Assembly: GCA_023379025.1 (NCBI GenBank) | Contig: JAMCTH010000009.1 | Location: forward strand, 133,092 to 197,091 | Source: Patescibacteria group bacterium | GTDB lineage: Bacteria; Patescibacteriota; Microgenomatia; UBA10105; UBA927 | Direction of reading: 5' to 3' | Length of the DNA: 64,000 bases | In this document: positions 1,032-51,075 of the stretch, in pieces | How positions within the stretch are numbered: the first letter of the stretch is position 1 | Layout: each line of letters begins with the position of its first letter | The notes under the pieces: generated by a model | What the model was told of the DNA's origin: nothing | The model's database searches: none | Seen by the model: only the letters and a program-made list of their open reading frames with translations | Translations under genes and position numbers: made by a program

Positions 1032-1855
1032 TTCTCCAGAAAGGAAAGGAGTCTCGTGGCAAGCGGTCCCGGCATATCCGACGGTATGTAATGCTCTGCT
1101 GCAAGCGGGCAAAGTTCCGCTCCGGCGATATTGGTATAAAGCGCCGTTCCCTGAACGGCATTTATTGCGGCGTCACGGGTCCCGTAAATCAAAAGCGCCG
1201 GGACACAGAGCTTCTCAAGCCACGGACGAAAATCTTCCCGCAGGATATCATCAAAACACTTTGCATAACTTTTAGCCGGTAATCTGCGAAGCTCTTCCTG
1301 AAGTTTTATACTGTTTTCCAGGGCCCGCTCTCTTTTTTTTCTGTTCGGGAAAATAATGCGGGCCAATACGTCATGAAGTTCTGGCTGCGCGGCAATCCAC
1401 TCCGCTATCTCAAGTGTTTTCCGGCTGTGAAGCGCAAATTCCAGTGCAGAAAGCCAAAGAAGCGGAAGGCGTTTTGTATGATCGCGAAGCGGGGAAGATA
1501 CCATGACGAGCGCCCGGACGCTTTTTGGGTGCTCTCCCGCATACCGAAGCGCAATAAGCGACCCCAGTGAGTGTCCCACGATGACCGGTTTCTGGATATG
1601 AAAATAGCGGATAAGTTTGTAAAGAAACCGGTGATACGTATGGAGTGTATAGACGCGTCCGGATGCGTTATGTGAACCATAGAGCGGCAAATCGAACGCC
1701 CACACCCTGTGATGGCAAGCGCAACGTTTCAATACTTCCGACCACAGCGCACAACCGGAAGCAAGACCCGGAAGAAAAACGATGGGCTTTCCTCTCCCGT
1801 CCGTAATATAGGTTATAGTCCTCCCGTCCATACGGACGGATTGTTTTTTTACCAT
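1022..1855 (-). CDS. alpha/beta-fold hydrolase
   Basis: GHSLGS nucleophile-elbow motif, 277 aa, typical length and architecture. Confidence 0.7.
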   Translation of the reverse strand: MVKKQSVRMDGRTITYITDGRGKPIVFLPGLASGCALWSEVLKRCACHHRVWAFDLPLYGSHNASGRVYTLHTYHRFLYKLIRYFHIQKPVIVGHSLGSLIALRYAGEHPKSVRALVMVSSPLRDHTKRLPLLWLSALEFALHSRKTLEIAEWIAAQPELHDVLARIIFPNRKKRERALENSIKLQEELRRLPAKSYAKCFDDILREDFRPWLEKLCVPALLIYGTRDAAINAVQGTALYTNIAGAELCPLAAEHYIPSDMPGPLATRLLSFLENHG

Positions 1856-1909
1856 ATGACGTCTTCCTCTTCATGCTATCAAAGCGGAAAAGCAAAAAGA
1901 AGACCGCAG

Positions 1910-2560
1910 TCAGTCGCTGCTGCGGACGGCAAGTACTGTCCCCTTGTGCACGGTGACCCTGGCTTTCTTTCCGCTGAACTCATTACTGATGCCGAGAGTT
2001 GACGGACGGGTAACGTTGTGCTTTGCCACCTCATACCGAAAACCGCGCAGCGTTATGACAGCGGACCGGCTCAGCGGAAGAAACGAAATATACCGATAAC
2101 GGCCGGAACGCTCCAGTATCGCTTCCCGGGGAAGAAGAAAGAGTTCATTGTTCCCGTCCCGTATCCGAAGATCGGTAAACACCCGTCCCCATGTTTCCAG
2201 AAGATGTGCCGCCGCGAGACTATGGTCTACGCGTCCTCCGGTTACGCCCCACAGCGTTATCCGATCCGCAGGTATCTCCCGGACATAGCGGAGGGCCAGT
2301 TCCAGATCCGTCTGATCCTTCTTCCGGGGATAGGTGATAAGTTTCGGAATGTCCCGCCGGATGAGCGTCATTTCCTCCCGCGAAACCGAGTCAAAATCCC
2401 CAATAGCAACCGCGGCAACAATATGCCGCTTGAGAAGCCACGCCGCACCACGGTCTACACCGATAATCACCCGGCAAGCGGCAATATCCGGCAGAAACCC
2501 ATCTGATAAAGGTCCTCCCGCGACGATGGCGATCTGATTTTCTGTCTTCGTTATTTTCAT
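1910..2560 (-). CDS. thiN: thiamine pyrophosphokinase (likely start at MKITKTEN; ORF track extends to 2596)
   Basis: GDFDSV, TDLE and GGRVDH motifs characteristic of TPK catalytic domain. Confidence 0.75.
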   Translation of the reverse strand: MKITKTENQIAIVAGGPLSDGFLPDIAACRVIIGVDRGAAWLLKRHIVAAVAIGDFDSVSREEMTLIRRDIPKLITYPRKKDQTDLELALRYVREIPADRITLWGVTGGRVDHSLAAAHLLETWGRVFTDLRIRDGNNELFLLPREAILERSGRYRYISFLPLSRSAVITLRGFRYEVAKHNVTRPSTLGISNEFSGKKARVTVHKGTVLAVRSSD

Positions 2561-2571
2561 ACTCCTGTCAG

Positions 2572-3381
2572 TCAGCGCGCCAGGGAAACCGCCCATACAT
2601 GCCGGAAGCCGGCACGCTTGAGTGCACTGACTGCTGATCTCATGGTAGCACCGGTCGTAAACACATCATCAAATACAAAAAGATTAAGAGACTGAAAAAC
2701 CTGAAGGTTTGATGGGGTAGTAAAAACACCCCTCATGTTTTCCAACCTCTTTTTCCTGTCTTTCATCCCAACCTGCGGTGTCGTCTTTTGCATACGTTTC
2801 AACATGTCGGTACGCGTGTGAATGCGTAACTTTGCAGCAATGAGGTTTCCCAGTATTTCTGCCTGATTGAAACCCCGCTCACGGTATCGGGACGGATGAA
2901 GGGGGATGGGGACAAGCATCGCTTCACTATCACAGTGTTTCATTGCGGAAGATAACGATTGGGGCGGAATAAGTTCAATAAGTTCGCGGGCCAGGTCTGA
3001 AACCAGGCGATATTTAATGGCTTTAACGGCCTTTTTTATGACCCCAGTGTAGTGAAAAAAAGAAATGAGGCCGTCTACGGTGTAGCGGGTTTTACAAACA
3101 GGATGGGTCATGCCGTCAATCGCCGGCCGTTCACATATTGGGCAGATTGTTTCACTCCGCACAATGGGTTTCACGGTAGCGCAGCATCGGCCACAAATAT
3201 ATTGACCGATCCTGCCGCAGCCAACACACCGCCTCGGGAACAAATAATCAAGGATATTCACCACAAAACCTCTTTTTCGGTTCTGATAAAAATCCCGCAC
3301 CGGATGAAGAACCGCCTCAACGCAGGAGAGGCCTGCTTTGTGGAGATGCCGGGTAATGAGCCCGGGTCCGAAGAAATACAC
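2572..3381 (-). CDS. comF: ComF-family phosphoribosyltransferase-like competence protein (true start may be internal)
   Basis: N-terminal CxxC...CxxC zinc-finger pairs, FNQAE, and C-terminal FVFDDVFTTGAT PRTase motif. Confidence 0.75.
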   Translation of the reverse strand: MYFFGPGLITRHLHKAGLSCVEAVLHPVRDFYQNRKRGFVVNILDYLFPRRCVGCGRIGQYICGRCCATVKPIVRSETICPICERPAIDGMTHPVCKTRYTVDGLISFFHYTGVIKKAVKAIKYRLVSDLARELIELIPPQSLSSAMKHCDSEAMLVPIPLHPSRYRERGFNQAEILGNLIAAKLRIHTRTDMLKRMQKTTPQVGMKDRKKRLENMRGVFTTPSNLQVFQSLNLFVFDDVFTTGATMRSAVSALKRAGFRHVWAVSLAR

Positions 3382-3399
3382 GAGAAACGTCTACAAGCG

Positions 3400-3759
3400 T
3401 AGTCAGTCAACAGATGTCGTCTTTCCCTGATCCGGCTGACAGGAAAGGAAAGGCCAAGGCGTATTGATCGTGACCCTGCCGGAACGCCGAACCGGCAAAG
3501 CTGAACCCCGGCTCGATGTACACCTCATGGCGGCCACCGGAGAAGCCGGCCGTGAGATGGACGTTAGGCCCGAAGGTATTGTGCGTTCGCAAATGCCAAT
3601 CGTGCCTGCCGTCGCTCGAGAGCCAGCATTCTGAGTGCCAGTTCATCGAGCTCGCTAAGAGTAGACTTAGCAATTATGGTTGACAACAGTTTTACGGCTC
3701 GTTTGTCATCGCCGGCTTGCGGTTTTTAATGTACTTGCCTCGTCGAGTCGTACATCCCC
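3400..3759 (-). ncRNA. ssrA: candidate tmRNA (ssrA), 5' end at 3759 immediately downstream of smpB; 3' end not located
   Basis: Minus-strand sequence GGGGAUGUACGACUCGACGAGGCAAG closely resembles canonical tmRNA 5' ends (e.g. GGGGACGUUACGGAUUCGACAGGG); followed by UAAAAACCGCAAGCC similar to the pre-tag region of E. coli ssrA; ~390-nt gap with no convincing protein, position downstream of smpB. A canonical T-arm/ACCA 3' end was NOT found. Confidence 0.3.
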
Positions 3760-3791
3760 TTCGTGAACAGGTTTCACAACCTTGTCCTGAT

Positions 3792-4235
3792 CTACCTGAG
3801 TTTCCCCCTATATTCTCGCTGGATCTCGCGGTCCTGGTCCTCCCGCCGTTTTGCTTCTCGCTTTTCATACTGCTTTTTCCCGCGCGCGAGGCCGATTTCG
3901 AGTTTTATGAGAGGGCCCCTAGTATACCAGGCAAGCGGTATCAGGGTCAAACGGGATGTATCGAGCTTGTTTTTCAGCGCGATAAGCTCTTTTTTATGAA
4001 GAAGCAGCTTCCTGGTGCGCTTTGGATCGTATCCTTCGGGTCGTGCGTAAATATACGGAAAAATATGTGCGTTCACGAGGTATGCTTCTGAACCGATAAC
4101 ACGCACAAACGAACCGTCCAGCTTCGCATGGCCGGTTTTCAGCGATTTGACCTCCGGCCCCGTCAGCTGCACGCCCGCCTCAACATGTTCGAGAACCGTG
4201 TAATCAAATGTTGCTTTTTTGTTATAAATCTTCAT
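3792..4235 (-). CDS. smpB: SsrA-binding protein SmpB
   Basis: MKIYNKKATFDY...GPEVKSLK...KLLLHKKE, 147 aa, full-length SmpB signature. Confidence 0.9.
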   Translation of the reverse strand: MKIYNKKATFDYTVLEHVEAGVQLTGPEVKSLKTGHAKLDGSFVRVIGSEAYLVNAHIFPYIYARPEGYDPKRTRKLLLHKKELIALKNKLDTSRLTLIPLAWYTRGPLIKLEIGLARGKKQYEKREAKRREDQDREIQREYRGKLR

Positions 4236-8882: not shown

Positions 8883-9245
8883 ATGAAGCGCATCCCAACG
8901 GTCTTATTGGCTACTTTTGCCTTGTTTGAAGCTCCCCGTGTATACGCTCAGCAGCCGCAGATAAATATCAACGGATGTATCGATACCGCGCTCGGCTGTA
9001 TCAATCCCGATCCCGCATCCATTTTTACTAAATTTTTTGATGTAGGCATCGGACTAGCCGGCGGCATCGCATTTCTTCTCATTATTTTCGGGGGACTCCA
9101 GATCATGACCAGCACCGGAAACCCTGAAAAGCTCAACGAAGGGAGGGAACTTGTCGTATCGGCAATTGCAGGGCTTCTCCTCATCATCTTTTCCGTCTTT
9201 ATCCTTCGGCTCATCGGGGTAAATATTTTAGGTGTTTTCCGGTAA
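8883..9245 (+). CDS. pilin-like two-helix protein (VirB2/TrbC-like), paralog 1, with Sec-type signal peptide
   Basis: Signal peptide ending VYAQ/Q; two hydrophobic helices separated by MTSTGNPEKLNEGRE loop; shares architecture with seven paralogs. Confidence 0.5.
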   Translation: MKRIPTVLLATFALFEAPRVYAQQPQININGCIDTALGCINPDPASIFTKFFDVGIGLAGGIAFLLIIFGGLQIMTSTGNPEKLNEGRELVVSAIAGLLLIIFSVFILRLIGVNILGVFR

Positions 9246-9254
9246 AATACGAGT

Positions 9255-9575
9255 ATGCATACCCTGGCTCAGTCGCTCAACCTCCCCGGCGGACAAACCA
9301 TCACCGGACCGGTACCCTATACCGATATCGGGAGCGTTCTCAGTAAAGCTCTTCCGTATGTATTCGCATTTGCGGGATTCGGACTTCTTCTCATGATCGT
9401 TGCCGCAGGTATTACATTGATGACCAGCGCCGGAGATGCAAAAAAAATGGAGCAGGGAAAACAGCGCTTAACTTATGCACTGGTGGGCTTTTTCGTGATA
9501 TTTTTTTCATATTGGATTATGCTTCTTATCGGACGGATATTCGGCATCCAGGAAATCAATACTATTTTTCAGTAA
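9255..9575 (+). CDS. pilin-like two-helix protein, paralog 2
   Basis: MHTLAQSLN N-terminus (cf. paralog 6), helices flanking MTSAGDAKKMEQGKQ loop. Confidence 0.5.
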   Translation: MHTLAQSLNLPGGQTITGPVPYTDIGSVLSKALPYVFAFAGFGLLLMIVAAGITLMTSAGDAKKMEQGKQRLTYALVGFFVIFFSYWIMLLIGRIFGIQEINTIFQ

Positions 9576-9587
9576 ACACCTTGTCCC

Positions 9588-10328
9588 TCATGTTCCGAAC
9601 CGCCGTTTCCGAAGGGTATAAACCGTAAGTGCCTCGTCCAACCGCTGAGGCGTAAACTCCGGCATATACCACTCGGGGAAATAGAATTCGCTATACTGGC
9701 ACTGCCAGAGCAGAAATCCGGACAACCGCTGTTCCCCGCCGGTCCGTATGATAAAGTCCGGATCCGGAATACCTGCGGTATCTAAAAACTTGCCGTATTC
9801 TTGCGTGGTTACACGGCTACATTGCTGTTTGGCTGCCGAAAGGGAGTCAACGGAATCCAGAATAGACACGGTAAGACGCTTCATTGCCCGTACTAATTCA
9901 TCTCTCCCGCCGTAATTGAGGGCAAAAACCGCGGTAATTCTGGTGTTGTGCTCCGTCTCAACAACCACATCGGCAAGCGCCTTTTGTATATCCCGGGAAA
10001 ATCCGCTGATGTCACCGATGGTTCGGATCCGCACCCCTTTCTTATGAAGCCGGTCCCAGCGGTCCCGGATGATATGGCGGAACAGCCGCATCACCCCCTC
10101 TACCTCTCTCTTGTCCCTGCCCCAGTTTTCCGTTGACCAGGCCCAAAACGTCAGATAGGAAATACCCCGGTCTGCTGCGTGTTCTATAAGAGGCTCCAGT
10201 ATCTCGTCCGCCACTTTTTTGTGCCCTGCAAGAACCGGCAGCCTGTGCGCGCGTGCCCAGCGGCGGTTGCCGTCCATGATGATGCCGATATGCCGGGGCA
10301 GCTGTTGTGATGTGTCGCCTGTCTTCAT
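9588..10328 (-). CDS. uppS: undecaprenyl-diphosphate synthase (start probably MKTGDTS at 10328; ORF track extends to 10373)
   Basis: HIGIIMDGNRRWA, FALNYGGRDE, cis-prenyltransferase family signature. Confidence 0.85.
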   Translation of the reverse strand: MKTGDTSQQLPRHIGIIMDGNRRWARAHRLPVLAGHKKVADEILEPLIEHAADRGISYLTFWAWSTENWGRDKREVEGVMRLFRHIIRDRWDRLHKKGVRIRTIGDISGFSRDIQKALADVVVETEHNTRITAVFALNYGGRDELVRAMKRLTVSILDSVDSLSAAKQQCSRVTTQEYGKFLDTAGIPDPDFIIRTGGEQRLSGFLLWQCQYSEFYFPEWYMPEFTPQRLDEALTVYTLRKRRFGT

Positions 10329-10852
10329 GTTTCTGTGATAAACCCGATATGTCGAAGTGAGGCAACTGCCCATGTAGAAAGGATCACTTCCTTACTTCGC
10401 CGTTTAGCGTCAAGTTCACGTTTGGAAAAAAAACAAACCTCCGCTACCTCATCCGGATGTGTCCGGAACGGCCCCTGATAGTAACCTCTGTATAATGCGT
10501 CAAATTCCGTCTCACGTCTGTCTCGGAACAGCCACTTTCCGACATATCTGATCGGTGCACGGATGCCCAATTCCTCGAATAGTTCGCGTTCCGCAGCCCG
10601 GCGGTATGTTTCTCCAGCGCTCACGTGTCCTGCGGCAGATATAGCCCAGAGACCGGGTTGCAGATCCTTGGTCAGACTCCGTTTTTGGAGAAGCACCTTT
10701 TTTTGCCTATCAAAAATCAGAACACCGACTGACCGGTGAATGAGCCTTCTATCACGGTGGCATTCATAACGGGTACGGACACCCAACGGATGATCACGTG
10801 TATCCACGACAACAAATTGTTCGCTCAGGTCGTCTGTCGTTTTGTGTTTCAT
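10325..10852 (-). CDS. NUDIX hydrolase, isopentenyl-diphosphate-isomerase-like (catalytic Cys of type-1 IDI not conserved)
   Basis: Nudix box GHVSAGETYRRAAERELFEELGI; overall similarity to IDI-1 (HRSVGVLIFD...KRSLTKDLQPGLWAIS) but ISAAGH instead of NSVCGH. Confidence 0.6.
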   Translation of the reverse strand: MKHKTTDDLSEQFVVVDTRDHPLGVRTRYECHRDRRLIHRSVGVLIFDRQKKVLLQKRSLTKDLQPGLWAISAAGHVSAGETYRRAAERELFEELGIRAPIRYVGKWLFRDRRETEFDALYRGYYQGPFRTHPDEVAEVCFFSKRELDAKRRSKEVILSTWAVASLRHIGFITET

Positions 10853-11730
10853 GTGTTGGCAAACCCCTTACCTGAATCGAGCCGCACCCCTTCTCCGTTC
10901 AGGCTGATCGGAATAAGGATTAATCGGTACCGCCGGGCCCATCGGCGGGCAACAGCCGCATCGGCGTGGTAGCACACTGCGCCGATCGGTCCGGCAGAAA
11001 GCAGCGCTCCGCCCGATTCCGCAAGCTGCCGGAAACATCCGGATCCGGGATCGTCCGCGGGCAATGGAGACCGATAATCCTGCCAGAATTTTCCGGAAAC
11101 AGCGACAAGCGCGTTGGTATCCCCTGTTTTCATAATCTCAGCAACAGTCCTGATATATGATTCCGAAGGAGCGGGCATGTCAAACGGCTTGCCGGTTTTC
11201 CGCACAACCAGAAAGCAATGGTTCATGTGCGACGCGGAGGAAAGCGGTAATTGCCACAGACTTCGCAGATATGTCAGCTCTTTCCGGTACCACAGAAACC
11301 CGCCGAACACTGAGCCCGTCATGTCTACCTCGTGGACCGGAGGAAGAATATCGCGTCGCATATTCACCATGAACGTGTGCGCCGTCTGGGGATTCCAGAT
11401 GCCTCTCATGGCATAAAGGAGGGCGGCTGTTCCCGCTGCAAGGAACGCAGACCGATAGAGCGCCGGGTTATGTAGGTCAGCCGGAAACGAAAGGCTATAC
11501 CGGAATGGTGGAAGCCGCCTCTGACGGTAGGTCCCCTCCAGATACTTTGTAATAAGGATAAAGAGGCCGGAAAATACGTCATCAGCGGAACGGGGCGCGC
11601 TTGTTGCCGGACTCAGGGTGAGGGTGAGACGCAGATCGGTCGCCGAGGCAAAAAGCGGCAACGCTTCATAGACGTAGTCCCCGGCAAGTGCAACCACAAG
11701 CGGCGCGGAAACACGGATACTGCGCTTCAT
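10849..11730 (-). CDS. possible GHMP-kinase-like protein (mevalonate-pathway kinase candidate), weak
   Basis: Size ~293 aa, N-terminal SAPLVVALAGDYVYE resembles GHMP motif 1; located between Nudix/IDI-like and isopentenyl phosphate kinase genes; motif 2 poorly conserved. Confidence 0.3.
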   Translation of the reverse strand: MKRSIRVSAPLVVALAGDYVYEALPLFASATDLRLTLTLSPATSAPRSADDVFSGLFILITKYLEGTYRQRRLPPFRYSLSFPADLHNPALYRSAFLAAGTAALLYAMRGIWNPQTAHTFMVNMRRDILPPVHEVDMTGSVFGGFLWYRKELTYLRSLWQLPLSSASHMNHCFLVVRKTGKPFDMPAPSESYIRTVAEIMKTGDTNALVAVSGKFWQDYRSPLPADDPGSGCFRQLAESGGALLSAGPIGAVCYHADAAVARRWARRYRLILIPISLNGEGVRLDSGKGFANT

Positions 11731-12536
11731 CGCTCCACCCTCGTACCCAGCACGGGCTCTCCGCGGACTGCTTTGGAGAGGCTGCCGTGTTCGATGCCGT
11801 CGATAATGAGCCCGGGTATTCCCTCCCGGGCCAGCGCCAGGGTTTCTTCCACCTTATGGATCATACCGCCGGTCACATCGGTCCCTGAGGACCCGGTCAG
11901 GACGGATTGGTAAACCGGAAAATTTTCCGTGGTGATTTCGGGAATGGTCCTGCCGTCCGCGTCATACACGCCGTTCGTCTGCCCGCAGTGAATGATGCGT
12001 TCTATAACGTACCCCTTCTTCTTAAGATGGAGCGCAAGATACCCCAACACTTTTTCCGTCGAAAATATGGTACACCCTACCTGGGTGTCGATAATCTGGT
12101 CTCCATAAAGAACCGGTAAGAGATTGAGCCGGAGAAGCGCTTCGATGCTCTCCGAAAAAACGGATTTGAGGCTGTGGTTTCGGGCAACCATGGTACTCAA
12201 GGGACTCACGGATACCGCATTGACTCCTTTCTCAAGCAGTTTCTTGACGACAATACGGTTGAGCTGTGCCGCTACATCGGCCACTTCCGCAATACCACGG
12301 TAACTCGCATCATTGATAATGCCTTTGTGTGTCTGGTATTTTTTTGCGGGGAAATGTGCAAAGGATCCCGCGCCGTGGCCCACGACGAGCTTTTTCCCTG
12401 TGAGTGTTGCTTTTTTGATCTCCTCGCAGATCGTATCAAGCGCGTGTTCCTTGAGGGAAAACGGCTTGGTCTTATCGGTGATAAGCGACCCGCCGATTTT
12501 CACAAAAACGATGGGTGTTTTTTTTGTTTGTGTCAT
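11727..12536 (-). CDS. isopentenyl phosphate kinase (amino-acid-kinase family)
   Basis: VKIGGSLITDK and GHGAGSFAH motifs, ~269 aa, characteristic of IPK of the alternative mevalonate pathway. Confidence 0.7.
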   Translation of the reverse strand: MTQTKKTPIVFVKIGGSLITDKTKPFSLKEHALDTICEEIKKATLTGKKLVVGHGAGSFAHFPAKKYQTHKGIINDASYRGIAEVADVAAQLNRIVVKKLLEKGVNAVSVSPLSTMVARNHSLKSVFSESIEALLRLNLLPVLYGDQIIDTQVGCTIFSTEKVLGYLALHLKKKGYVIERIIHCGQTNGVYDADGRTIPEITTENFPVYQSVLTGSSGTDVTGGMIHKVEETLALAREGIPGLIIDGIEHGSLSKAVRGEPVLGTRVER

Positions 12537-13291
12537 GATTGCATGCTCATAATTAATTGCCGTTGAGTCGGTGGGTCATGCGAAAACAATGTAAATGCCA
12601 CATCCTCTCTTCTCCCGGCAGATCCCAGAGCAACTACATCATGCCATCCTTTCAATCCGTGTGCAACAATAGTGAGCATTCCCGCCCGTGCCGGAAATCC
12701 TCCTAAATAAGTAAGCGGGTGCACCCATAACGGGGTATCGGTTTCGTTATCGTTTGGCTCAACAGGGTGAACGGCAATAAGCTCATTTGGAACATATGCC
12801 ATGCGCGCTTCCACCCAGACATGTTGATTGATGAAATAATGGCCAATTACCCGTCGGGAAACCTGCACCATCTCAGGCGCCCAACCCATCTCTTCTATAA
12901 TTGCCCGTGCCCGGGTCACTTCAAGCATCTCTCCCGGCCTACGCGTCTCTGCGACAACACTGTAATCCCCAAAGTATTTATCGTTTTCCGGCTTGTCTCT
13001 GCGTTCACGACTCACCAATATATAGGGATGGTGATCGATGTCGGTATATACAACGAGTACGACTCCACCTATTTCTTTATCCGGTGGCGGAGACCAATCC
13101 ACAATTCCGGAGTCTTCGTGAAGCATTTTTTCATAAACATCAGCACCAAATTCTGTTACAAGTTCCGGAGCGAGATGCATACTGGCAGTAGGCATATTAA
13201 AAGCAACGTCACCAAGGTCTCTAAAACCATTCGGAGTAAAACGGTTGGGGACGATTACCATGCTGCCCGAGCCATATTCAGCCAATCTCAT
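12533..13291 (-). CDS. hypothetical protein with degenerate Nudix-like motif
   Basis: RAIIEEMGW resembles REUxEExGU part of a Nudix box; otherwise unrecognised. Confidence 0.35.
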   Translation of the reverse strand: MRLAEYGSGSMVIVPNRFTPNGFRDLGDVAFNMPTASMHLAPELVTEFGADVYEKMLHEDSGIVDWSPPPDKEIGGVVLVVYTDIDHHPYILVSRERRDKPENDKYFGDYSVVAETRRPGEMLEVTRARAIIEEMGWAPEMVQVSRRVIGHYFINQHVWVEARMAYVPNELIAVHPVEPNDNETDTPLWVHPLTYLGGFPARAGMLTIVAHGLKGWHDVVALGSAGRREDVAFTLFSHDPPTQRQLIMSMQS

Positions 13292-13293
13292 AG

Positions 13294-13917
13294 TTAGAGA
13301 AACGGAACTTTAAAGATTCCGAGCGTATACGTGAGATAACTATATGCAGCAAAGACCGGAAGACAGATGCCCAATGCACCTACGATCCGCAAAAGATCCA
13401 GTTTCATGGAAAACCGGAGCGTCAGATAGGTCAAAAGGACTTTCCATGAAAGAATGGTTACGCTGAACACGAGAAAGACGAGACTAAATGCAATCCCTGC
13501 CATACTGGTCGTCCTGGGCGGCGGCAGCAAAACATAGAGCAGAGAGGTGACAAAAAACCAGCTTACCGTCGGAAGGAGGGTATATGCCCAGCCGATGCTG
13601 AGACTCCGATATCCGCCTCTCCCGCCCACGAGTTTTGCCGCCATCCACAGCACCAGAGAAGCGAAAAGAAACGAGATGCCGCTCATTCCTGCAAGCCATA
13701 AAAACGTCCGCGTCAGAAGAAACGGACGAAACGATGCGGTACGCACCGCTGCGGCCAGCCCGAAATACACCGCAAGTAATGCTCCTATATACGGCAGCTC
13801 CCAATATGTGGAGTGAAACATTATCGTGCGGTAGGTTTCATACGGCCGCGTAACGAGTCCGATGCTGTTTTTCCCGAACCGCACGCTTGCCACGGCAACA
13901 TCCTCAAGGAGGCTCAT
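13294..13917 (-). CDS. polytopic membrane protein (Yip1-like topology), unknown function
   Basis: 5-6 predicted hydrophobic helices, 207 aa. Confidence 0.4.
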   Translation of the reverse strand: MSLLEDVAVASVRFGKNSIGLVTRPYETYRTIMFHSTYWELPYIGALLAVYFGLAAAVRTASFRPFLLTRTFLWLAGMSGISFLFASLVLWMAAKLVGGRGGYRSLSIGWAYTLLPTVSWFFVTSLLYVLLPPPRTTSMAGIAFSLVFLVFSVTILSWKVLLTYLTLRFSMKLDLLRIVGALGICLPVFAAYSYLTYTLGIFKVPFL

Positions 13918-13941
13918 ACCAGTATTAGTCGGAAAAATCCG

Positions 13942-14172
13942 CTAAAACCCGCGCTGGAGAAGGGACACGAGGAGAGTAATTGCCGATCCGACAAAAAAAT
14001 ACAGAAGGGTCGCAACGCCGAACGCGAGAAGCACCAGCAGCGGCCAGGGCATAACCTTAAAATGCCGCGTCACCGTTTTATAGTGAGCGGTAAAGGGTCC
14101 GAGCGTCTGCGGGGGAAGATCGATGACTTCTTCCCACCGTCTAACGAATTTTTCGTACAATGCGTCTGGCAT
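13942..14172 (-). CDS. putative anti-sigma factor (single-TM small protein immediately downstream of ECF sigma)
   Basis: 76 aa, one TM helix LLVLLAFGVATLLYFFVGSAITLLV, position directly 3' of sigma gene. Confidence 0.35.
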   Translation of the reverse strand: MPDALYEKFVRRWEEVIDLPPQTLGPFTAHYKTVTRHFKVMPWPLLVLLAFGVATLLYFFVGSAITLLVSLLQRGF

Positions 14173-14174
14173 AT

Positions 14175-14714
14175 TTATACGGATAAAAAGGCCTCAACAA
14201 ATGCTTTTCTGGCACGGAACAGCTGGGATTCTGCGCCTTTGAGCGTAGTGGCAAGGCGGTCTGCAATATCCTCTACGGTCAGATTATCCATATATTTGAG
14301 AAGCAGAATCTCCCGATACCGGGGAATGATCCTCCCCAACGTACGGTGGATGCGGTCATGGAAAAGCCGGGAATCCAACTCCTCTTCCGGAGTGAGAAGC
14401 GGAGACACGAGTGTTTCAAGCTGCGGCATGCGGGAAAACACCACCTGCTTTACCTTTTTCCTCCGGTAATAATCCGCAACCTTATGCCTGCAGATGGCGT
14501 ACAAAAACGTACTGACCGAAGAGGTGCCGTTAAAGTCGCGCAGACCATCAAGAAACGCAAACAGTGTGTCCTGAAGTATCTCTTCCGCGTCTTTCGGGTT
14601 ATTGACCTTTTCCTCAATATACCCAAGGAGCCTGGGTGCGTAGGTTTTATAAAACGATGTAAGTGCCCGTTTGTCTCCAACGAGCATCCGGCGTATCACA
14701 TCACTATTACTCAT
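14175..14714 (-). CDS. ECF-type RNA polymerase sigma-70 factor
   Basis: Region 2 (YKTYAPRLLGYI...DAEEILQDTLF) and region 4 (LTVEDIADRLATTLKGAESQLFRARKAF) signatures, 179 aa. Confidence 0.8.
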   Translation of the reverse strand: MSNSDVIRRMLVGDKRALTSFYKTYAPRLLGYIEEKVNNPKDAEEILQDTLFAFLDGLRDFNGTSSVSTFLYAICRHKVADYYRRKKVKQVVFSRMPQLETLVSPLLTPEEELDSRLFHDRIHRTLGRIIPRYREILLLKYMDNLTVEDIADRLATTLKGAESQLFRARKAFVEAFLSV

Positions 14715-14732
14715 GGGGTACCGGCTACTATA

Positions 14733-15680
14733 TCACTTCCCGCGCTTCCAAACAAATATCACGAGTTCCCGCAGATACGCCCGGACGAGCGGAGACGGAC
14801 GCATAGCATCGAGTGCCGATAGTGCTTGTCGGGTAAGCGTCTCAGAGCGATTCGTACCAACGTCCGGCGGGATTTCACCGTCCAGTACGTCGTCACGAAG
14901 CTGAAACAGCTGCCCCACCGGGAGACCGAAACGGGCAAGCTGTGCCAGCGTAAGCGCTGAAGCTCCTGCAAGCGCCGCCCCCATCTGAAGCGGCCGGATC
15001 ACGCTGTACCATGCGGTTTTATAGGTATCAATCGTAGCTTTCGATATCGAGGGGTCTCCGTCCGCAAAAAGGATGTCGAGTGTTTGTCCGAAGATAATCT
15101 CCTGCTTCATCTGTCGGTACAGGGACAGAACACCCCGATGCTCCGTTTTTCCGGTCTGTTCATCTGCCCAAACCAGCGCAAGATCGCCCGCGAGAAGCCC
15201 CATGCTCTCGCCGAAGCGGATGCGCGCCACCCCTCCGACAGCCCTGCTTTTTGCCTGAAAAAACGCATGGACGGTGGGTCGTCCGCGGCGTTTCAGATCC
15301 GCATCCATAATGTCGTCATGAATGAGAGCAAACGTATGAAAAAGCTCTGTTCCGACCATAACCGACATCAGTTCTCCGGGTAAAGCCCGCGCTGGCGCAG
15401 CAGAGCGGACGCTATTGCTCTGTGTCATGTATCCCAACCAAACCAGAAACGGGCGCATGCGCTTTCCTCCGCCGAGCGTAAAGGCTTCAATCGCAGCAAC
15501 AAGCCGGATACATTGGCTGTCTACCTGTTTTGCTTCGGCAGTTTTTTGAACAAAAAACACGCGGAGTGCCCGATCAACTATTCGCTTCATTGCTCTTACA
15601 TCACGCTGAAAATCCATGCAGCCAGTATAATGGAGTATTTCCGGGTTTACAATTTGCCCAATGAGGAGCGTCATCGGCAT
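14733..15680 (-). CDS. trans-polyprenyl diphosphate synthase (FPP/GGPP synthase family)
   Basis: First and second Asp-rich motifs ALIHDDIMD and FQLRDDVLD. Confidence 0.8.
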   Translation of the reverse strand: MPMTLLIGQIVNPEILHYTGCMDFQRDVRAMKRIVDRALRVFFVQKTAEAKQVDSQCIRLVAAIEAFTLGGGKRMRPFLVWLGYMTQSNSVRSAAPARALPGELMSVMVGTELFHTFALIHDDIMDADLKRRGRPTVHAFFQAKSRAVGGVARIRFGESMGLLAGDLALVWADEQTGKTEHRGVLSLYRQMKQEIIFGQTLDILFADGDPSISKATIDTYKTAWYSVIRPLQMGAALAGASALTLAQLARFGLPVGQLFQLRDDVLDGEIPPDVGTNRSETLTRQALSALDAMRPSPLVRAYLRELVIFVWKRGK

Positions 15681-15720
15681 CTCGTTGACACTGGCATTCC
15701 CCTTCCCCTACACTACGGGT

Positions 15721-16044
15721 ATGGAGCGTGTGTTTGCTGCATTTGATATCGGTACCCAGGCATCGCCGTCATTCAGGACCTTTTCCAATTTCGGGGATCT
15801 TGTTTCCGTTATCGTTAAAAATGCCTATGTTCTGGCCGGTGTTTTAAGCTTTCTTTTGTTGGTTTTCGGCGCGTTCGGGTTTATAATGGGAGCAGGCGGC
15901 GGAGACAGCAAAAAAATGGAAGAGGCCAAACAGACGCTTACGTGGGCGGTGGTTGGACTTCTTCTGGTCATCGGATCATATTGGATCATCCTGATCCTAT
16001 CAAAAATTACGGGATATAATATCCTGTCACCGCCGGCGTCGTAA
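15721..16044 (+). CDS. pilin-like two-helix protein, paralog 3 (start set at MERVFAAFD)
   Basis: N-terminal M-E-R-V-F-A motif shared with paralogs 4 and 7; helices flanking MGAGGGDSKKMEEAKQ loop. Confidence 0.5.
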   Translation: MERVFAAFDIGTQASPSFRTFSNFGDLVSVIVKNAYVLAGVLSFLLLVFGAFGFIMGAGGGDSKKMEEAKQTLTWAVVGLLLVIGSYWIILILSKITGYNILSPPAS

Positions 16045-16050
16045 TTCCGT

Positions 16051-16398
16051 ATGGAACAGGTCTTTGCACAGGATGTCATAGGAAAAGTAAACGTGACCAC
16101 CCTCCTCCCCGGAGGGTATCACAGCCTCAGTGGCATCGGTCTCTTCTTTTCCAATGTCCTCCGGCTTCTCTTTGTCGCCGCGGGGATCCTGGCGTTTCTC
16201 AACCTCATTATCGCGGGGTACCAGTACATAACGGCGGGGGGCGACGCCAAAGCGCTTGAAAAAGCGTGGAGCAGAATATGGCAATCTCTTGTCGGCCTTA
16301 TTCTTATCGTCGGCTCATTTGCGCTGGCCGCCCTGTTCGGCTACATCATCTTTGGTGACGCCGGATTTATTCTGAATCCCAAAGTGTATGGACCATAA
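16051..16398 (+). CDS. pilin-like two-helix protein, paralog 4
   Basis: MEQVFAQD N-terminus; ITAGGDAKALEKAWSR loop between two hydrophobic helices. Confidence 0.5.
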   Translation: MEQVFAQDVIGKVNVTTLLPGGYHSLSGIGLFFSNVLRLLFVAAGILAFLNLIIAGYQYITAGGDAKALEKAWSRIWQSLVGLILIVGSFALAALFGYIIFGDAGFILNPKVYGP

Positions 16399-16801
16399 CT
16401 CTCTCTTTCATCATGTGCGCGTGTTGGCACAGGGAAGTTCTGACAGTCTCGGCACCATCGGCGGCGGCGGCTTGGGACCGTTTGCTGCAAAAAATTACTC
16501 CGGCGGAGGAACCCAGGCGCTCGTCGACATTACCAAAGCGGTTTCTGCCATCATCGGATTTCTCACGATTGCAGCGGGCATTTGGTTTCTGTTTCAGCTT
16601 CTGATCGGTGCCATCTCCTGGATCACGAGCGGCGGGGACAAAACAAACCTCGAAAACGCTCGGAACCGCATCATCCACGGGCTCATCGGGCTTATCATCG
16701 TCGTCATGGGGTGGGCTATCCTTGCAATCGTCGGACAGTTTCTGGGGTACGACATACTTCTTTCAAATCCCGGCAGCATCATAAACCAAATCAGGCTCTA
16801 A
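16388..16801 (+). CDS. pilin-like two-helix protein, paralog 5 (true start may be GTG near 16415)
   Basis: VRVLAQG N-terminal motif; AISWITSGGDKTNLENARNRIIH loop region identical at DNA level to paralog 6. Confidence 0.45.
   Translation: MDHNSLFHHVRVLAQGSSDSLGTIGGGGLGPFAAKNYSGGGTQALVDITKAVSAIIGFLTIAAGIWFLFQLLIGAISWITSGGDKTNLENARNRIIHGLIGLIIVVMGWAILAIVGQFLGYDILLSNPGSIINQIRL
16606..16678 (+). repeat. 73-bp perfect direct repeat, copy A (inside pilin paralog 5)
   Basis: cggtgccatctcctggatcacgagcggcggggacaaaacaaacctcgaaaacgctcggaaccgcatcatccac identical to 16966-17038. Confidence 0.9.
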
Positions 16802-16805
16802 CCGT

Positions 16806-17153
16806 ATGCACGAAACGCTGGCACAGCTCACCAATCCCGTCCTCCCGCCGATTATCGGCCAGGGAGGGTCGGCCAGCGGTATACGGGGAGCCGGCATATT
16901 TATCAGCAATCTCATTTCCATTATCTTCATCGTTTCATTTCTTCTTGCGTTTTTTTTCCTCCTGACCGGTGCCATCTCCTGGATCACGAGCGGCGGGGAC
17001 AAAACAAACCTCGAAAACGCTCGGAACCGCATCATCCACTCGCTCATGGGACTTATCATTGTGGCGGCCGCATGGGCCATCATGGTGCTCGTCGGACAGT
17101 TTATCGGGCTCGACATCCGTCAACTGCCCATTCCGTCCATATCAGGGCAGTAG
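16806..17153 (+). CDS. pilin-like two-helix protein, paralog 6
   Basis: MHETLAQLTN N-terminus (cf. paralog 2); contains 73-bp segment identical to paralog 5. Confidence 0.5.
   Translation: MHETLAQLTNPVLPPIIGQGGSASGIRGAGIFISNLISIIFIVSFLLAFFFLLTGAISWITSGGDKTNLENARNRIIHSLMGLIIVAAAWAIMVLVGQFIGLDIRQLPIPSISGQ
16966..17038 (+). repeat. 73-bp perfect direct repeat, copy B (inside pilin paralog 6)
   Basis: Identical to 16606-16678; flanking sequence diverges immediately. Confidence 0.9.
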
Positions 17154-17247
17154 ACATCACACATTGGCACACTATTGACAAGGTGATAATGTTTTGTAAC
17201 AATAGAAAGTACGATATTATCAGGCTATTCTTGAAAGAGGAGGATAT

Positions 17248-17580
17248 ATGCTGCAGGTATTTGCTCAGGATCTGACCATCGGTCAGCCATCAAACGTCAA
17301 AATATCCAATCTCGGCATGCTCATCAGCGCGTTGGTCGGAACACTGCTCATCCTGTCGGCCCTTCTTGCATTTTTCTTCCTCATCCTTGGCGGTATCCAG
17401 TGGATCACCTCGGGCGGAGATAAGGCAGGCATGGAAGCCGCACGGAACAAAATCACCCACGCCATCGTCGGGCTTATCATCGTCGGTGCCGCATGGGCCA
17501 TCATGATCCTCATTCAGAATTTCCTGGGGATCACGGTCATCGGCGGCGGCATCAACATCCCCAAGCCGTTCAATCAATAA
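17248..17580 (+). CDS. pilin-like two-helix protein, paralog 7
   Basis: AGGAGG Shine-Dalgarno 7 nt upstream of ATG; MLQVFAQD N-terminus; ITSGGDKAGMEAARNK loop. Confidence 0.55.
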   Translation: MLQVFAQDLTIGQPSNVKISNLGMLISALVGTLLILSALLAFFFLILGGIQWITSGGDKAGMEAARNKITHAIVGLIIVGAAWAIMILIQNFLGITVIGGGINIPKPFNQ

Positions 17581-17649
17581 AGCCGAGGAGCCGTCATTTT
17601 CCATACTCACCTGTGGACAAAAAACGCGTTTATACGTCATAATACAGGT

Positions 17650-17961
17650 ATGGTATTTGCCGCTACCTATATCGGTGATACGCCGCAAATCAAAGACCTG
17701 GAAACCCTCTTCGGCAACGTCATTGCTTCTGTCATGGGAATAGCTGTTGTCGTCCTCTTTGTCATGCTTCTTGTGGGCGGATTTACCTTCCTTATGTCCG
17801 GCGGCGACCAGAAAAAGCTGGATGCCGCCAAAGGAACGCTTACATCGGCGATCGTCGGAATTGTCGTCGTCATCTCTGCGTATCTTATCCTCCGCACGAT
17901 CGGTGTCATCACCGGAGTAAGCCAAATCACCACGGTAAACTTGAATCTCGGACACCCCTAG
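17650..17961 (+). CDS. pilin-like two-helix protein, paralog 8
   Basis: Two hydrophobic helices flanking MSGGDQKKLDAAKGT loop. Confidence 0.5.
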   Translation: MVFAATYIGDTPQIKDLETLFGNVIASVMGIAVVVLFVMLLVGGFTFLMSGGDQKKLDAAKGTLTSAIVGIVVVISAYLILRTIGVITGVSQITTVNLNLGHP

Positions 17962-26473: not shown

Positions 26474-26574
26474 GGCTTAATAATACCATACGGAACGCCG
26501 CCCGCCACACACCCGGAGGAGTCCCGTGAAAACCTAAAAATAGAGTTTTCACAGTCCTGATGCGCTTCGTTATA

Positions 26575-26604
26575 GTTGCGAAGGTTGCCGCAACCTTTTA
26601 GAAT
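26575..26604 (+). promoter_or_regulatory. sigma70-like promoter TTGCGA-18-TAGAAT with a perfect 17-nt palindrome (AAGGTTGC-C-GCAACCTT) filling the spacer; candidate repressor operator for the PrgI-VirB4-hydrolase operon
   Basis: Direct reading of 26575-26604; a second 8-bp inverted repeat GTGAAAAC...GTTTTCAC lies at 26526-26552 in the same divergent intergenic region. Confidence 0.35.
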
Positions 26605-26632
26605 GAGAGTGGGTTTAACCGGCAAAATAATC

Positions 26633-30689: not shown

Positions 30690-30701
30690 TACCGGTTTTG
30701 T

Positions 30702-35197: not shown

Positions 35198-35323
35198 TAT
35201 ATTGAAATATTCTATTAGTAATAGTAAATAGTAACTGCCGTGGAAAAGTGTATGTCTTTTTGTTTTTCCTGTCAACGCAGAGAGAATGTCCTGTTTTTTG
35301 TCTGGGGAAAAGAGGGGGAAAGC

Positions 35324-35370: not shown

Positions 35371-35378
35371 AAAGCAGG

Positions 35379-51059: not shown

Positions 51060-51075
51060 TTTACCGTCACGGCAT

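Follow-up and report, generated by a model that had tools for sequence, protein, structure and literature searches.

Results

The window, that is, the whole stretch of 64 kb analysed here out of a contig of ~280 kb, carries an isoprenoid operon for the lipid carrier, from a CPR bacterium of Microgenomates type. The original prediction had placed an isoprenoid gene cluster here; we found every ORF of its gene list, on the minus strand, and the family and profile matches agree with it. The features are the following:

9588..10373, minus strand: undecaprenyl diphosphate synthase (UppS), from Prenyltransf and TIGR00055 matches; probable start 10328
10325..10852, minus strand: NudB, an IDI-like Nudix protein with a NUDIX match, IDI metal ligands, the changes C67A and Y104F, and a canonical Nudix hydrolase box
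10849..11730, minus strand: pseudo-MVK, a mevalonate-kinase-derived GHMP-fold protein, from remote MVK homology and fold; motifs I, II and III destroyed
11727..12536, minus strand: isopentenyl phosphate kinase (IPK), from NF040647, AA_kinase and solved-IPK matches
12533..13291, minus strand: X252, a fast-evolving Nudix-fold protein of 252 aa whose Nudix box, RAIIEEMGW, is degenerate (RA in place of RE)
13294..13917, minus strand: Yip1-like polytopic membrane protein, from PF04893 in its orthologues
13942..14172, minus strand: candidate anti-sigma factor of 76 aa, from its position and one C-terminal hydrophobic (predicted transmembrane) segment
14175..14714, minus strand: ECF-type sigma factor, from Sigma70_r2, r4_2 and TIGR02937 matches
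14733..15680, minus strand: short-chain trans-prenyl diphosphate synthase (FPP/GGPP-synthase type), from a polyprenyl_synt match; probable start 15617
15624..15652, minus strand: promoter-like site TTGTAA-17-TATACT, from a consensus scan, just upstream of the ATG at 15617

These genes form a single, tightly packed operon in the order prenyl synthase, ECF sigma, anti-sigma candidate, Yip1-like protein, X252, IPK, pseudo-MVK, NudB and UppS. Its spacing consists of ATGA overlaps plus 2-nt spacers, and 4-bp ATGA overlaps link the last five genes, from X252 to UppS. ORF starts were set by the longest-ORF rule and two of them, those of uppS and of the prenyl synthase, are probably wrong. The true start of uppS is likely at 10328 (Met16), which would give the ATGA overlap with NudB. 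That of the prenyl synthase is probably the ATG at 15617 (Met22), as supported by the length of the synthases of relatives (275-294 aa). We found ATGGATTTT a few bases downstream of the promoter-like site (15652-15624), a site that is weak evidence since the count of such sites is not above the shuffle expectation.

Catalytic motifs are intact in IPK, UppS and the trans-prenyl synthase. The latter (polyprenyl_synt, 117.1 bits with Pfam) has both aspartate-rich motifs, LIHDDIMD and RDDVLD, and is 42-47% identical to its positional orthologues in the related loci L003, L004 and L013. UppS (Prenyltransf, 231.5 bits with Pfam; TIGR00055, 225.4 for a cut-off of 109.55) contains DGNRRWA and RTGGEQRLSGFLLWQ. 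Genes for Und-P consumers (Bac_transf, WecG/TagA and Wzy-like) were also observed within the 64-kb window.

The 269-aa product of the central gene, already annotated as IPK by NCBI, had been predicted to be an IPK. It matches AA_kinase (115.8 bits with Pfam) and passes the equivalog threshold of NCBIfam NF040647, IPPK_Arch (188.7 for a cut-off of 120). An assignment as aspartokinase or other amino-acid kinase was rejected in view of this score. The protein also matches solved IPKs (8u0k, 121 bits; 3k4o from M. jannaschii, 101 bits), and its GAGSFAH segment aligns column-for-column with GGGAFGH of M. jannaschii, so that the IPK His is conserved. At E<=1e-10 we obtained 3835 relatives, the best 120 of which show 65-81% identity; Microgenomates IPKs at this level of identity number in the hundreds. 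On these matches, it is a genuine IPK.

The next ORF, of 293 aa, had been described as GHMP-kinase-like. It gave no match to Pfam or NCBIfam, including the MVK, PMK and MDD models, and it was an orphan in a word-index search. An exhaustive search gave 39 matches and showed it to be distantly related to CPR mevalonate kinases (E 1e-14 to P0002). Its AF2 model is confident (pLDDT 91.2) and the Foldseek matches are GHMP kinases; the profile of its family matches solved MVKs with 118 bits, and 30 of 35 family members match the NCBIfam MVK model, but not the window protein. By homology and fold, this ORF derives from mevalonate kinase. The kinase part of the description does not stand, as motifs I, II (phosphate-binding loop) and III are all lost: where intact family members have PGKVxLxGEHxVVYG, PxGxxLGSSAA, GxPSGxDN and KIxGxGG, the window protein reads APLVVALAGDY, LHNPALYRSA, PPVHEVDM and LSAGPIG. 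The pseudo-MVK gene directly follows IPK in 9 loci (the window and 8 others). In the window, ATGA overlaps with the adjoining stop codons are present on both sides, and the coupling to IPK is kept in L013, L019, L087 and L091.

NudB had been noted as an IDI-like Nudix protein lacking the catalytic Cys, and indeed Ala replaces Cys67 of E. coli IDI and Phe replaces Tyr104. It scores 83.1 bits with NUDIX (Pfam), falls below both IDI equivalog cut-offs of NCBIfam (95.2 for 127; 66.7 for 105.8) and retains the IDI metal site and residues H25, H32, H69, E114 and E116, as well as W161. Its box, GHVSAGETYRRAAERELFEELGI, fits GX5EX7REUXEEXGU perfectly, a box that is retained by canonical hydrolases and not by IDIs (PMC5389931). 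Judging from these residues, NudB most likely hydrolyses prenyl diphosphates rather than isomerising them. Its orthologues in L003, L004, L013 and L016 are 45-62% identical. The best solved match of NudB is E. coli YfcD (PDB 2FKB; 70.1 bits, E 1.9e-18), which also lacks the IDI catalytic Cys; however, NudB stays under the YfcD equivalog cut-off (80.6 for 152) and has His at the IDI His69 position where YfcD has Gly in a pairwise alignment. YfcD has no assigned function (PMC5389931).

A second degenerate-Nudix ORF had been proposed, and X252 corresponds to it. Alone, X252 is sub-threshold with NUDIX (16.5 bits with Pfam) and an orphan in the word-index search; it is 34% identical to its positional orthologue in L004. 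A profile built from its positional family (A7), by contrast, finds solved Nudix hydrolases (E 4e-11), and hhalign relates it to the IDI/NudB profile with a probability of 96%.

The original prediction also included an ECF sigma/anti-sigma pair. The sigma factor is well supported by Sigma70_r2 (47 bits) and r4_2 (44.5 bits) with Pfam and by TIGR02937 (85.5 for a cut-off of 42.9). Its position is the same in relatives, including ahead of a full MVA operon in L090. Its partner begins 2 nt past the sigma stop codon and shares 58-67% identity with its counterparts in the closest relatives (Gottesmanbacteria-type) and 39-43% with those in more distant ones. It stays a candidate, with a role proposed from its position only, because the 76-aa protein has no Pfam or family match. 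No Pfam match was obtained for the Yip1-like protein of the window; its orthologues in L003 and L004 (50-54% identity) carry PF04893 Yip1.

We then compared the gene content with that of related loci. In the 64 kb, we found no decarboxylase of the MDD/PMD family (family and local profile searches), no AcnX/UbiD-type enzyme, no HMGS, HMGR or thiolase, no canonical IDI, no intact MVK and no MEP gene; neither a transporter for phosphorylated C5 compounds nor a prenol kinase was identified in the window. The L090 contig contains a complete MVA operon (sigma, 77-aa protein, Yip1, HMGR, HMGS, thiolase (AACT), DUF35, MVK, GHMP kinase, MDD, uppS) in the same slot between sigma/anti-sigma/Yip1 and uppS, with 51, 39, 36 and 48% identity to the window for sigma, anti-sigma, Yip and uppS, respectively. 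An MVK-MDD-IPK-uppS arrangement is found in L001, L028, L048, L073, L075, L078 and L079, and IDI-IPK-uppS in L010, L011, L017, L021-25, L029, L031, L033 and L082. Nudix-type genes flank IPK in the window and in relatives. Identity to relatives is 71-80% for IPK, 59-67% for uppS, 45-62% for NudB, 20-30% for pseudo-MVK and 25-34% or undetectable for X252.

Since in related CPR loci this slot is occupied by MVK-MDD-IPK or by a full MVA operon, the window version appears to be a reduced derivative. From a handful of contigs, compared without a phylogeny, we infer that it is the reduced end of a series of MVA operons, centred on IPK, and that the direction was loss from a full operon and not independent assembly. 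In this reduction HMGR, HMGS, thiolase, the second kinase and the decarboxylase would have been lost, canonical IDI being absent, and MVK would persist as a protein that still folds but has lost the kinase motifs.

Discussion

It is already known that IPK occurs in CPR bacteria beside IDI-like and cis-prenyltransferase genes: Hoshino and Gaucher (2018, Mol Biol Evol; PMC6107057) reported CPR IPK in synteny with 'IDI-I' and cis-prenyltransferase, even without other MVA genes, and described its function as uncharacterised. The window agrees with those loci in lineage (mostly Microgenomates), in IPK family and in having an IDI-like Nudix gene and uppS next to IPK. However, the Nudix neighbours are treated there as IDI-I, whereas in NudB Cys67 and Tyr104 are replaced and the box is of the hydrolase type, and a second Nudix-like paralogue (X252) is present. 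That paper does not appear to describe a motif-less MVK-derived protein paired with IPK, or a slot shared with a full MVA operon. Two features appear to be new: the conserved pairing of IPK with pseudo-MVK, and the Nudix hydrolase-like paralogues derived from IDI.

The original prediction had read the cluster as an alternative (archaeal-type) mevalonate route. In haloarchaea and Chloroflexi, as outlined in PMC11052028, this pathway comprises MVK, phosphomevalonate decarboxylase and IPK (Dellas et al. 2013; Vannice et al. 2014), and IPK is the terminal kinase there as here. A working Haloferax/Chloroflexi-type route, with the 293-aa protein as MVK or decarboxylase, IPK last and upstream genes elsewhere in the genome, could invoke the genuine IPK, the intact, translationally coupled and, in the model, well-folded 293-aa protein, and the close CPR relatives with the matching order MVK-MDD-like-IPK (the seven loci above), which have no separate PMK in the cluster. 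But IPK alone is insufficient: the locus lacks two of the three enzymes that define the pathway, with no MDD-family gene in the window and no functional-looking MVK. The 293-aa protein has lost motifs I-III, matches no MVK, PMK or MDD model and shows 26% identity where the IPKs of the same genomes share 80%. As the HMGR/HMGS/thiolase slot of relatives is also empty, we consider this route improbable. Somewhat less credible still is that the 293-aa and 252-aa ORFs are functionless, decaying pseudogenes in an operon of prenyl synthase, IPK, Nudix protein and UppS. Their very fast evolution, sporadic loss (absent in L003, L004 and L016), orphan status and loss of all catalytic motifs would fit, but in 8 loci at 20-30% identity the pseudo-MVK frame runs its full length with no stop or frameshift (the ninth copy, in L089, is truncated where its contig stops). 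Neutral decay over such divergence would have broken frames, and the confident model and conserved ATGA coupling also argue against it.

A possible but rather unlikely reading is that classical MVA or MEP elsewhere makes IPP, and that IPK with NudB and X252 forms a plant-like homeostatic cycle setting IP:IPP (DMAP:DMAPP) and recapturing precursor, without external salvage. The Nudix-type genes around IPK fit it and our view spans 64 kb of the contig; plant IPK and Nudix hydrolases are described as operating so (Henry et al. 2015, 2018; PMC8248349), and MVA genes are reported in most Microgenomates (PMC6107057). In both systems IPK is combined with Nudix proteins that putatively hydrolyse IPP/DMAPP to IP/DMAP, paired here physically in one operon, but the Nudix enzymes of plants are not known to derive from IDI, and the MVA and MEP pathways are both complete in plants, while the CPR roles are predicted from sequence. 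Against this cycle, those genes are gone from the ancestral MVA operon position, where the MVK copy is degenerate, MEP is described as sparse in CPR, where IPK-IDI pairs occur without most MVA genes (PMC6107057), and the strong conservation of IPK noted above better fits an essential flux-carrying step than trimming.

For hydrolysis of IPP/DMAPP there may be another analogy. An IDI-like Nudix hydrolase of Methanosarcina mazei, specific for IPP/DMAPP, was reportedly described by the Hemmi laboratory in about 2022, and NCBIfam NF041653 is possibly based on it. Release of monophosphates by that enzyme would be a direct precedent for NudB, by analogy only, since with 50.4 bits for a cut-off of 300 NudB falls outside that family.

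We give about an even chance to the locus being a leftover IPK step, probably for salvage or homeostasis, rather than an alternative mevalonate route working de novo. It reads as leftover because the mevalonate genes of relatives at this slot are lost or degenerate here, and as salvage or homeostasis because the C5 monophosphate would come from outside or by recapture. Its source would most likely be the host or community outside the cell, or IP/DMAP freed by the two Nudix-type proteins and recaptured; we know of no precedent for IP uptake. An IPK opposing a Nudix IPP hydrolase in one operon, an apparent futile cycle unless regulated, speaks against the proposal, and intact MVK, PMK or MDD genes, a MEP pathway or an IDI may lie outside the 64 kb. 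Pseudo-MVK would most likely be a non-catalytic partner or a ligand-binding protein coupled to IPK, and both it and X252 could have new catalytic functions unseen through motif loss.

In the proposed leftover step, IPK would be the sole IPP entry point encoded at the locus, phosphorylating isopentenyl phosphate and probably also dimethylallyl phosphate, neither of which the locus can make. The prenyl synthase would then produce FPP, and UppS would produce C55-PP for the carrier of cell wall and glycans. In B. subtilis, an ECF sigma pathway (SigM) senses undecaprenyl phosphate (PMC11081497), an ECF sigma/anti-sigma system tied to lipid-carrier supply; here the trio of sigma, anti-sigma candidate and Yip1-like protein is conserved before isoprenoid genes and uppS. 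The window sigma, however, is under the SigM subfamily cut-off (73.2 for 147.95) and the anti-sigma candidate has no family match, and a SigM-like regulatory link of the module to the lipid carrier is a conjecture by analogy. Such a module would plausibly tie expression of the operon to envelope or lipid-carrier stress.

A nine-gene isoprenoid operon

From the ORF reading of the window we observed nine consecutive ORFs on the minus strand between 9588 and 15680, which confirms the isoprenoid cluster listed in the original prediction. They are:

14733-15680, minus strand: trans-prenyl diphosphate synthase of the FPP type (117 bits, with both DDIMD and DDVLD)
14175-14714, minus strand: ECF sigma factor
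13942-14172, minus strand: protein of 76 aa with a single predicted transmembrane segment
13294-13917, minus strand: polytopic membrane protein (Yip1-like), 207 aa
12533-13291, minus strand: X252, 252-aa protein
11727-12536, minus strand: isopentenyl phosphate kinase (IPK), 269-aa protein of the amino-acid-kinase fold
10849-11730, minus strand: pseudo-MVK, 293-aa protein
10325-10852, minus strand: NudB, 175-aa Nudix protein
9588-10373, minus strand: uppS, undecaprenyl diphosphate synthase

The nine genes form one tightly coupled operon. The X252/IPK, IPK/pseudo-MVK and pseudo-MVK/NudB junctions are ATGA overlaps, as is the NudB/uppS junction provided that uppS starts at Met16 (10328), and gaps of 2 nt separate the sigma factor from the anti-sigma candidate and the Yip1-like gene from X252. 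A scan for terminators and promoters gave counts within shuffle expectation, the only positionally sensible site being before the prenyl synthase gene. This promoter-like site (15652-15624) lies directly 5' of an internal ATG (15617), and a start at 15617 would give the prenyl synthase the length found in its relatives.

UppS exceeds the TIGR00055 cut-off (225.4 against 109.55), and its DGNRRWA and RTGGExRxSxFLLWQ motifs are readable in the sequence. The original prediction had also placed a sigma/anti-sigma pair in the cluster. Its ECF sigma factor stands, with Sigma70_r2 and r4_2 (regions 2 and 4 only) and a TIGR02937 score of 85.5 for a cut-off of 42.9; the anti-sigma partner is only a candidate, the 76-aa protein.

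The 269-aa protein is an IPK

Judged from its sequence, the 269-aa protein is a genuine IPK, predicted to phosphorylate isopentenyl phosphate with ATP. It matches the amino acid kinase fold PF00696 over the full length (115.8 bits, 2-234/234) and the equivalog NF040647 with 188.7 for a cut-off of 120. The runner-up NCBIfam models scored far lower (FomA 52, ProB 31, ArgB 26), which rules out aspartokinase or another amino-acid kinase and bears out the proposed identity. Its best matches among solved structures are all IPKs (8u0k, 121 bits; Methanocaldococcus jannaschii 3k4o, 101 bits). The window segment GAGSFAH aligns to GGGAFGH of the M. jannaschii enzyme, the segment carrying the catalytic His60, and the nucleotide/phosphate motifs KIGGSLITDK and DVTGGM are invariant among CPR IPKs.

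A threshold of E<=1e-10 gave 3835 relatives. Identity is 65-81% for the best 120 of them, and the few of these with a source name come from Gottesman-, Beckwith- and Pacebacteria, Microgenomates or Patescibacteria. The closest IPK among GTDB representative genomes is 77% identical. At NCBI the same proteins lie on a contig of 279,906 bp (locus tags M1555_04145 and M1555_04155), and the 269-aa protein already bears the name IPK there.

A mevalonate kinase derivative without kinase motifs

Alone, the 293-aa protein gave no match in Pfam, NCBIfam or PDB sequence searches. With a word-index search we obtained a single relative (P0002; 24% identity, E 1e-14), itself a homologue of mevalonate kinase (MVK) with 67 bits to a solved MVK, and with an exhaustive search 39 relatives at E<=1e-3. 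A profile built from 35 of these 39 matched solved mevalonate kinases with 118 bits; 30 of the 35 profile members matched the NCBIfam MVK model, and the window protein did not. The AF2 model computed on the profile alignment (pLDDT 91.2, pTM 0.90) had heptose kinases, MVK and PMK as top Foldseek matches (E 1e-12 to 1e-10, TM 0.55-0.70), and model and matches together show the two-domain GHMP fold.

We then compared the GHMP motifs I (PGKxxLxGEH), II (PxGSGLGSSAA, the phosphate loop) and III (KxxGAGGGG), and none of the three is retained in the 293-aa protein.

Kinase motifs in intact CPR mevalonate kinases and in the 293-aa protein of the window
Motif I: intact PGKVxLxGEHxVVYG; window APLVVALAGDY
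Motif II (phosphate-binding loop): intact PxGxxLGSSAA; window LHNPALYRSA
GxPSGxDN motif: intact GxPSGxDN; window PPVHEVDM
Motif III: intact KIxGxGG; window LSAGPIG

The protein does retain the WNP...FGGxLWYRKELxxLRSxWQLP block common to intact CPR MVKs and a C-terminal EGVRL. From these sequence comparisons we conclude that it derives from mevalonate kinase and has lost the kinase motifs; we call it pseudo-MVK because the GHMP fold is present but the kinase motifs are not. An assignment as an MDD/PMD-type decarboxylase was rejected, the profile and the relatives being MVK and not MDD.

A motif-less pseudo-MVK lies directly 3' of IPK in nine loci (the window and the related CPR loci L005, L008, L012, L013, L019, L087, L089 and L091), with the identical ATGA IPK/pseudo-MVK overlap in five of the nine. 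The pseudo-MVK orthologues (20-30% amino acid identity) are too diverged for dN/dS to be informative. Directly 5' of IPK, the close relative L089 also encodes a 262-aa class-I methyltransferase and a Nudix protein of unusual length, 372 aa (1533-3441).

Two Nudix-type proteins and no canonical isomerase

The nearest solved relative of NudB is E. coli YfcD (2fkb, 70 bits), followed by type-1 IDIs (about 35-45 bits), and NudB falls under both IDI equivalog cut-offs (95.2 for 127; 66.7 for 105.8) as well as under the YfcD cut-off. We aligned it with 35 related ORFs and with an E. coli IDI reference sequence, whose numbering checked out. NudB retains the IDI metal ligands His25, His32, His69, Glu114 and Glu116 (E. 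coli numbering), plus Trp161; at the IDI catalytic positions it has Ala for Cys67 and Phe for Tyr104. Its box, GHVSAGETYRRAAERELFEELGI, fits exactly the canonical Nudix box GX5EX7REUXEEXGU, which is kept by canonical hydrolases and not by IDIs (PMC5389931). Read from this alignment, the NudB residues are of hydrolase type, not of isomerase type.

In relatives, the ORFs 5' of IPK are canonical IDI-1 enzymes with W-x-N-T-x-C-x-H/N-P, Tyr104 and 'RR' replacing 'RE', with Cys (or Ser) and Tyr at the catalytic positions; those of L003 and L087 pass the cut-offs (142 for 127; 129-133 for 105.8). The window holds no canonical IDI-1 gene such as these relatives have 5' of IPK.

X252 alone gave nothing significant in Pfam, NCBIfam and PDB sequence searches and no relative in a word-index search, and its single-sequence AF2 model was unusable (pLDDT 34). 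With the ORF that L004 has at this position it shares 34% identity. A profile of the X252 family (14 positional homologues) matched solved Nudix hydrolases with E 4e-11 and the IDI/NudB profile with an hhalign probability of 96%. The Nudix box is perfect in some members of the family, such as the L003 copy; that of the window, ...GEMLEVTRARAIIEEMGW, has RA for RE and lacks the first Gly, so that the second degenerate Nudix ORF had been correctly recognized. The identities of the 293-aa and 252-aa proteins are given solely by remote homologues, positional orthologues and profiles.

Three further observations concern other loci. Firstly, one subgroup of type-1 IDIs is canonical in keeping Tyr104, Glu114 and Glu116 but has Ser for Cys67, with motifs WADTTSTHP, WDGSFSSHP and WDGSISSHV (L004/L015 8648-9199, L005 1174-1704, L008 8860-9393, L012 8432-8962, L041 2009-2605, L077 3647-4174). 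NudB-type Cys-less IDI-like Nudix proteins also adjoin IPK or MVK in Aenigmatarchaeota, which are DPANN archaea (L056 10779-11291, minus strand; L080 8230-8754; L049 14558-15103). Finally, a conserved 179-aa ORF stands at the IDI position of sister loci in L016 (4637-5176) and L014 (7043-7582) and gave no match to the local Nudix, IDI, GHMP or IPK profiles.

The window lacks the other steps of a mevalonate route

Among window ORFs of at least 140 aa, Pfam searches found no HMG-CoA synthase, HMG-CoA reductase or thiolase; nor did ORFs of this size include an FMN-type IDI, a MEP gene or a family match to the aconitase-X and UbiD/UbiX of the Aeropyrum-type route. No MDD-family gene was detected in the 64 kb, either by phmmer with the MDD-like protein of L001 or by Pfam (ORFs of at least 140 aa), and local profile searches of window ORFs of at least 60 aa revealed no additional ORF of the GHMP, MDD or Nudix/IDI-like kind. 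A functional MVK is likewise absent, the sole GHMP-fold ORF of the window having neither motifs I-III nor a match to the MVK model. The alternative (archaeal-type) mevalonate route originally proposed is therefore overstated for this locus: the IPK is genuine, but there is no decarboxylase and the MVK homologue is motif-less.

Related loci range from a full MVA operon to an IPK locus

We compared 80 GTDB-representative loci and several metagenome contigs, whose ORFs were labelled by phmmer and profile searches. IPK and uppS are adjacent in most close relatives, within four states of the surrounding genes.

Gene orders of the related loci (X, positional family of X252; parentheses, not in all loci)
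State a, complete MVA operon without IPK: sigma, 77-aa, Yip1, HMGR, HMGS, thiolase, DUF35, MVK, second GHMP kinase, MDD-like, uppS (L090)
State b: MVK, MDD-like, IPK, uppS (L001, L028, L048, L073, L075, L078, L079)
State c: IDI, (X), IPK, uppS (L010, L011, L017, L018, L021-25, L029, L031-33, L082)
State d, Gottesmanbacteria type: prenyl synthase, sigma, anti-sigma, Yip1, IDI, X, IPK, (pseudo-MVK), (NudB), uppS (L003, L004/L015, L013, L016, L019, L087, L091)

The window corresponds to state d minus IDI. The sigma/anti-sigma/Yip1 trio precedes every version of the locus compared. The L090 operon occupies the same slot as that of the window, as indicated by the identities of its sigma (51%), anti-sigma (39%), Yip1 (36%) and uppS (48%) products, and its MVK is among the closest intact relatives of the 293-aa protein. 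In L001, the MVK passes TIGR00549 and the MDD-like protein TIGR01240. Short ORFs at 7595-8153 of L001, with a faint zf-ChsH2 (DUF35) match, stand at the position of the thiolase and DUF35 genes of L090 and look like remnants of upper mevalonate genes.

Identity of related proteins to those of the window
IPK: 71-80%
uppS: 59-67%
Sigma: 55-60%
Yip1: 50-54%
NudB: 45-62%
Prenyl synthase: 42-47%
X: 25-34%, or undetectable
Pseudo-MVK: 20-30%

We infer that this locus arose by reduction from an MVA operon and that only IPK is still under strong constraint in it.

Other genes of the window

8883-9575 and 15661-17961, plus strand: eight tandem small T4SS pilin paralogues (PF18895; 23-43 bits, with six exceeding the cut-off of 26.6)
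24290-33035: type-IV-secretion-like set (TrwB/VirD4-like coupling ATPase, PrgI-family, TraG/VirB4-like P-loop ATPase, M23 peptidase)
34085-36728, minus strand: dnaN and dnaA, adjoining a GC-skew sign change (about 34-36 kb)
3338-4235, minus strand: tmRNA (Rfam RF00023, 99 bits) directly 3' of smpB
75-1031, plus strand: fusion of an acyl-carrier (PP-binding) domain and a lysophospholipid-type acyltransferase
43840-60275: Und-P-consuming glycan-assembly block (two Wzy_C, two GT4, WecG/TagA, ABC-2 exporter, carbamoyltransferase, Bac_transf initiating transferase)
51642-55193: PLP-decarboxylase, ATP-grasp and spermine-synthase-like trio inside the glycan block
60523-61179, plus strand: AbiEii-type nucleotidyltransferase toxin (72 bits)

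The pilin paralogues lie on both sides of the isoprenoid operon, an arrangement kept in L001, L003 and L004. The dnaN/dnaA region is probably the replication origin region, and the acyltransferase fusion possibly serves lipid remodelling or salvage.

Discussion

In a study published in 2018, IPK in CPR is concentrated in Microgenomates and syntenic with 'IDI-I' and cis-prenyltransferase, a synteny still kept by species without most MVA genes; CPR IPKs are described there as uncharacterised and their role in CPR as not known (PMC6107057). The headline of our finding was therefore already known. In the literature searched we found no description of the conserved IPK/pseudo-MVK pair, of a division of the 'IDI-I' neighbours among canonical IDI, Cys-less NudB with a hydrolase box and fast-evolving X, or of the positional series that leads from the full operon to the IPK-only locus. 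A search on CPR IPK biochemistry and YfcD function gave nothing usable beyond the cited papers.

The comparison suggests that IPK is the sole strongly conserved enzyme, the neighbouring mevalonate genes having been lost or turned into a pseudokinase and hydrolase-like IDI paralogues. We propose that IPK would phosphorylate isopentenyl phosphate (and DMAP), neither of which can be made by this locus, to IPP (and DMAPP), from which the prenyl synthase and UppS would produce the C55 carrier for the cell-wall and glycan genes of the window; undecaprenyl phosphate is indispensable to cell-wall building. The monophosphates could come from a host or community, or be recaptured following Nudix hydrolysis. 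NudB probably hydrolyses prenyl diphosphates. An IDI-like Nudix hydrolase specific for IPP/DMAPP, reportedly present in Methanosarcina mazei, would be a closer precedent for it than the plant IPK/Nudix cycle. That cycle is the functional precedent for such a hydrolase (PMC8248349). Had pseudo-MVK evolved neutrally, divergence of this extent would have erased it, yet it keeps its frame, its fold and its coupling to IPK; we therefore think that it probably acts without catalysis, as a partner protein or by binding a ligand. As a conjecture, the sigma/anti-sigma/Yip1 trio may tie expression to lipid-carrier stress, on the model of B. subtilis SigM (PMC11081497). Taken as a whole, this mechanism, with salvage or recapture and a flow from IPK through the prenyl synthase to UppS, is the one that we favour, though it seems to us evenly poised between right and wrong.

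Other readings have to be weighed against it. Precursors may be made de novo by an MVA or MEP route encoded elsewhere in the genome, with IPK and the Nudix proteins purely homeostatic; we consider this doubtful, though it deserves real weight. A functional haloarchaeal-type route in which the 293-aa protein takes part is improbable: the IPK would suit it, but the phosphate loop of the 293-aa protein is lost and the decarboxylase is missing from the window. Pure decay of the two fast-evolving ORFs (293 and 252 aa) is more improbable still, since their frames are intact across many lineages.

Salvage through IPK could be extended to a Microgenomates clade without any de novo route to isoprenoid precursors, living on C5 units taken up from outside (isopentenyl/dimethylallyl phosphate or the alcohols) by means of IPK, a coupled non-catalytic MVK-derived partner and IDI-derived Nudix hydrolases. 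L090, L001 and the window would then mark a stepwise top-down truncation of the mevalonate pathway with deepening host dependence. We regard this extension as speculative and rather unlikely.

Two annotation shortcuts are to be avoided: the presence of IPK is not the presence of an alternative mevalonate pathway, and an IDI-like Nudix protein is not necessarily an isomerase. The locus and its relatives suggest a testable answer to how C5 building blocks are supplied in ultra-small CPR bacteria. If the rest of the genome lacks both MVA and MEP, the locus would represent a bacterial case of natural isoprenoid-precursor salvage and would mark dependence on a host.
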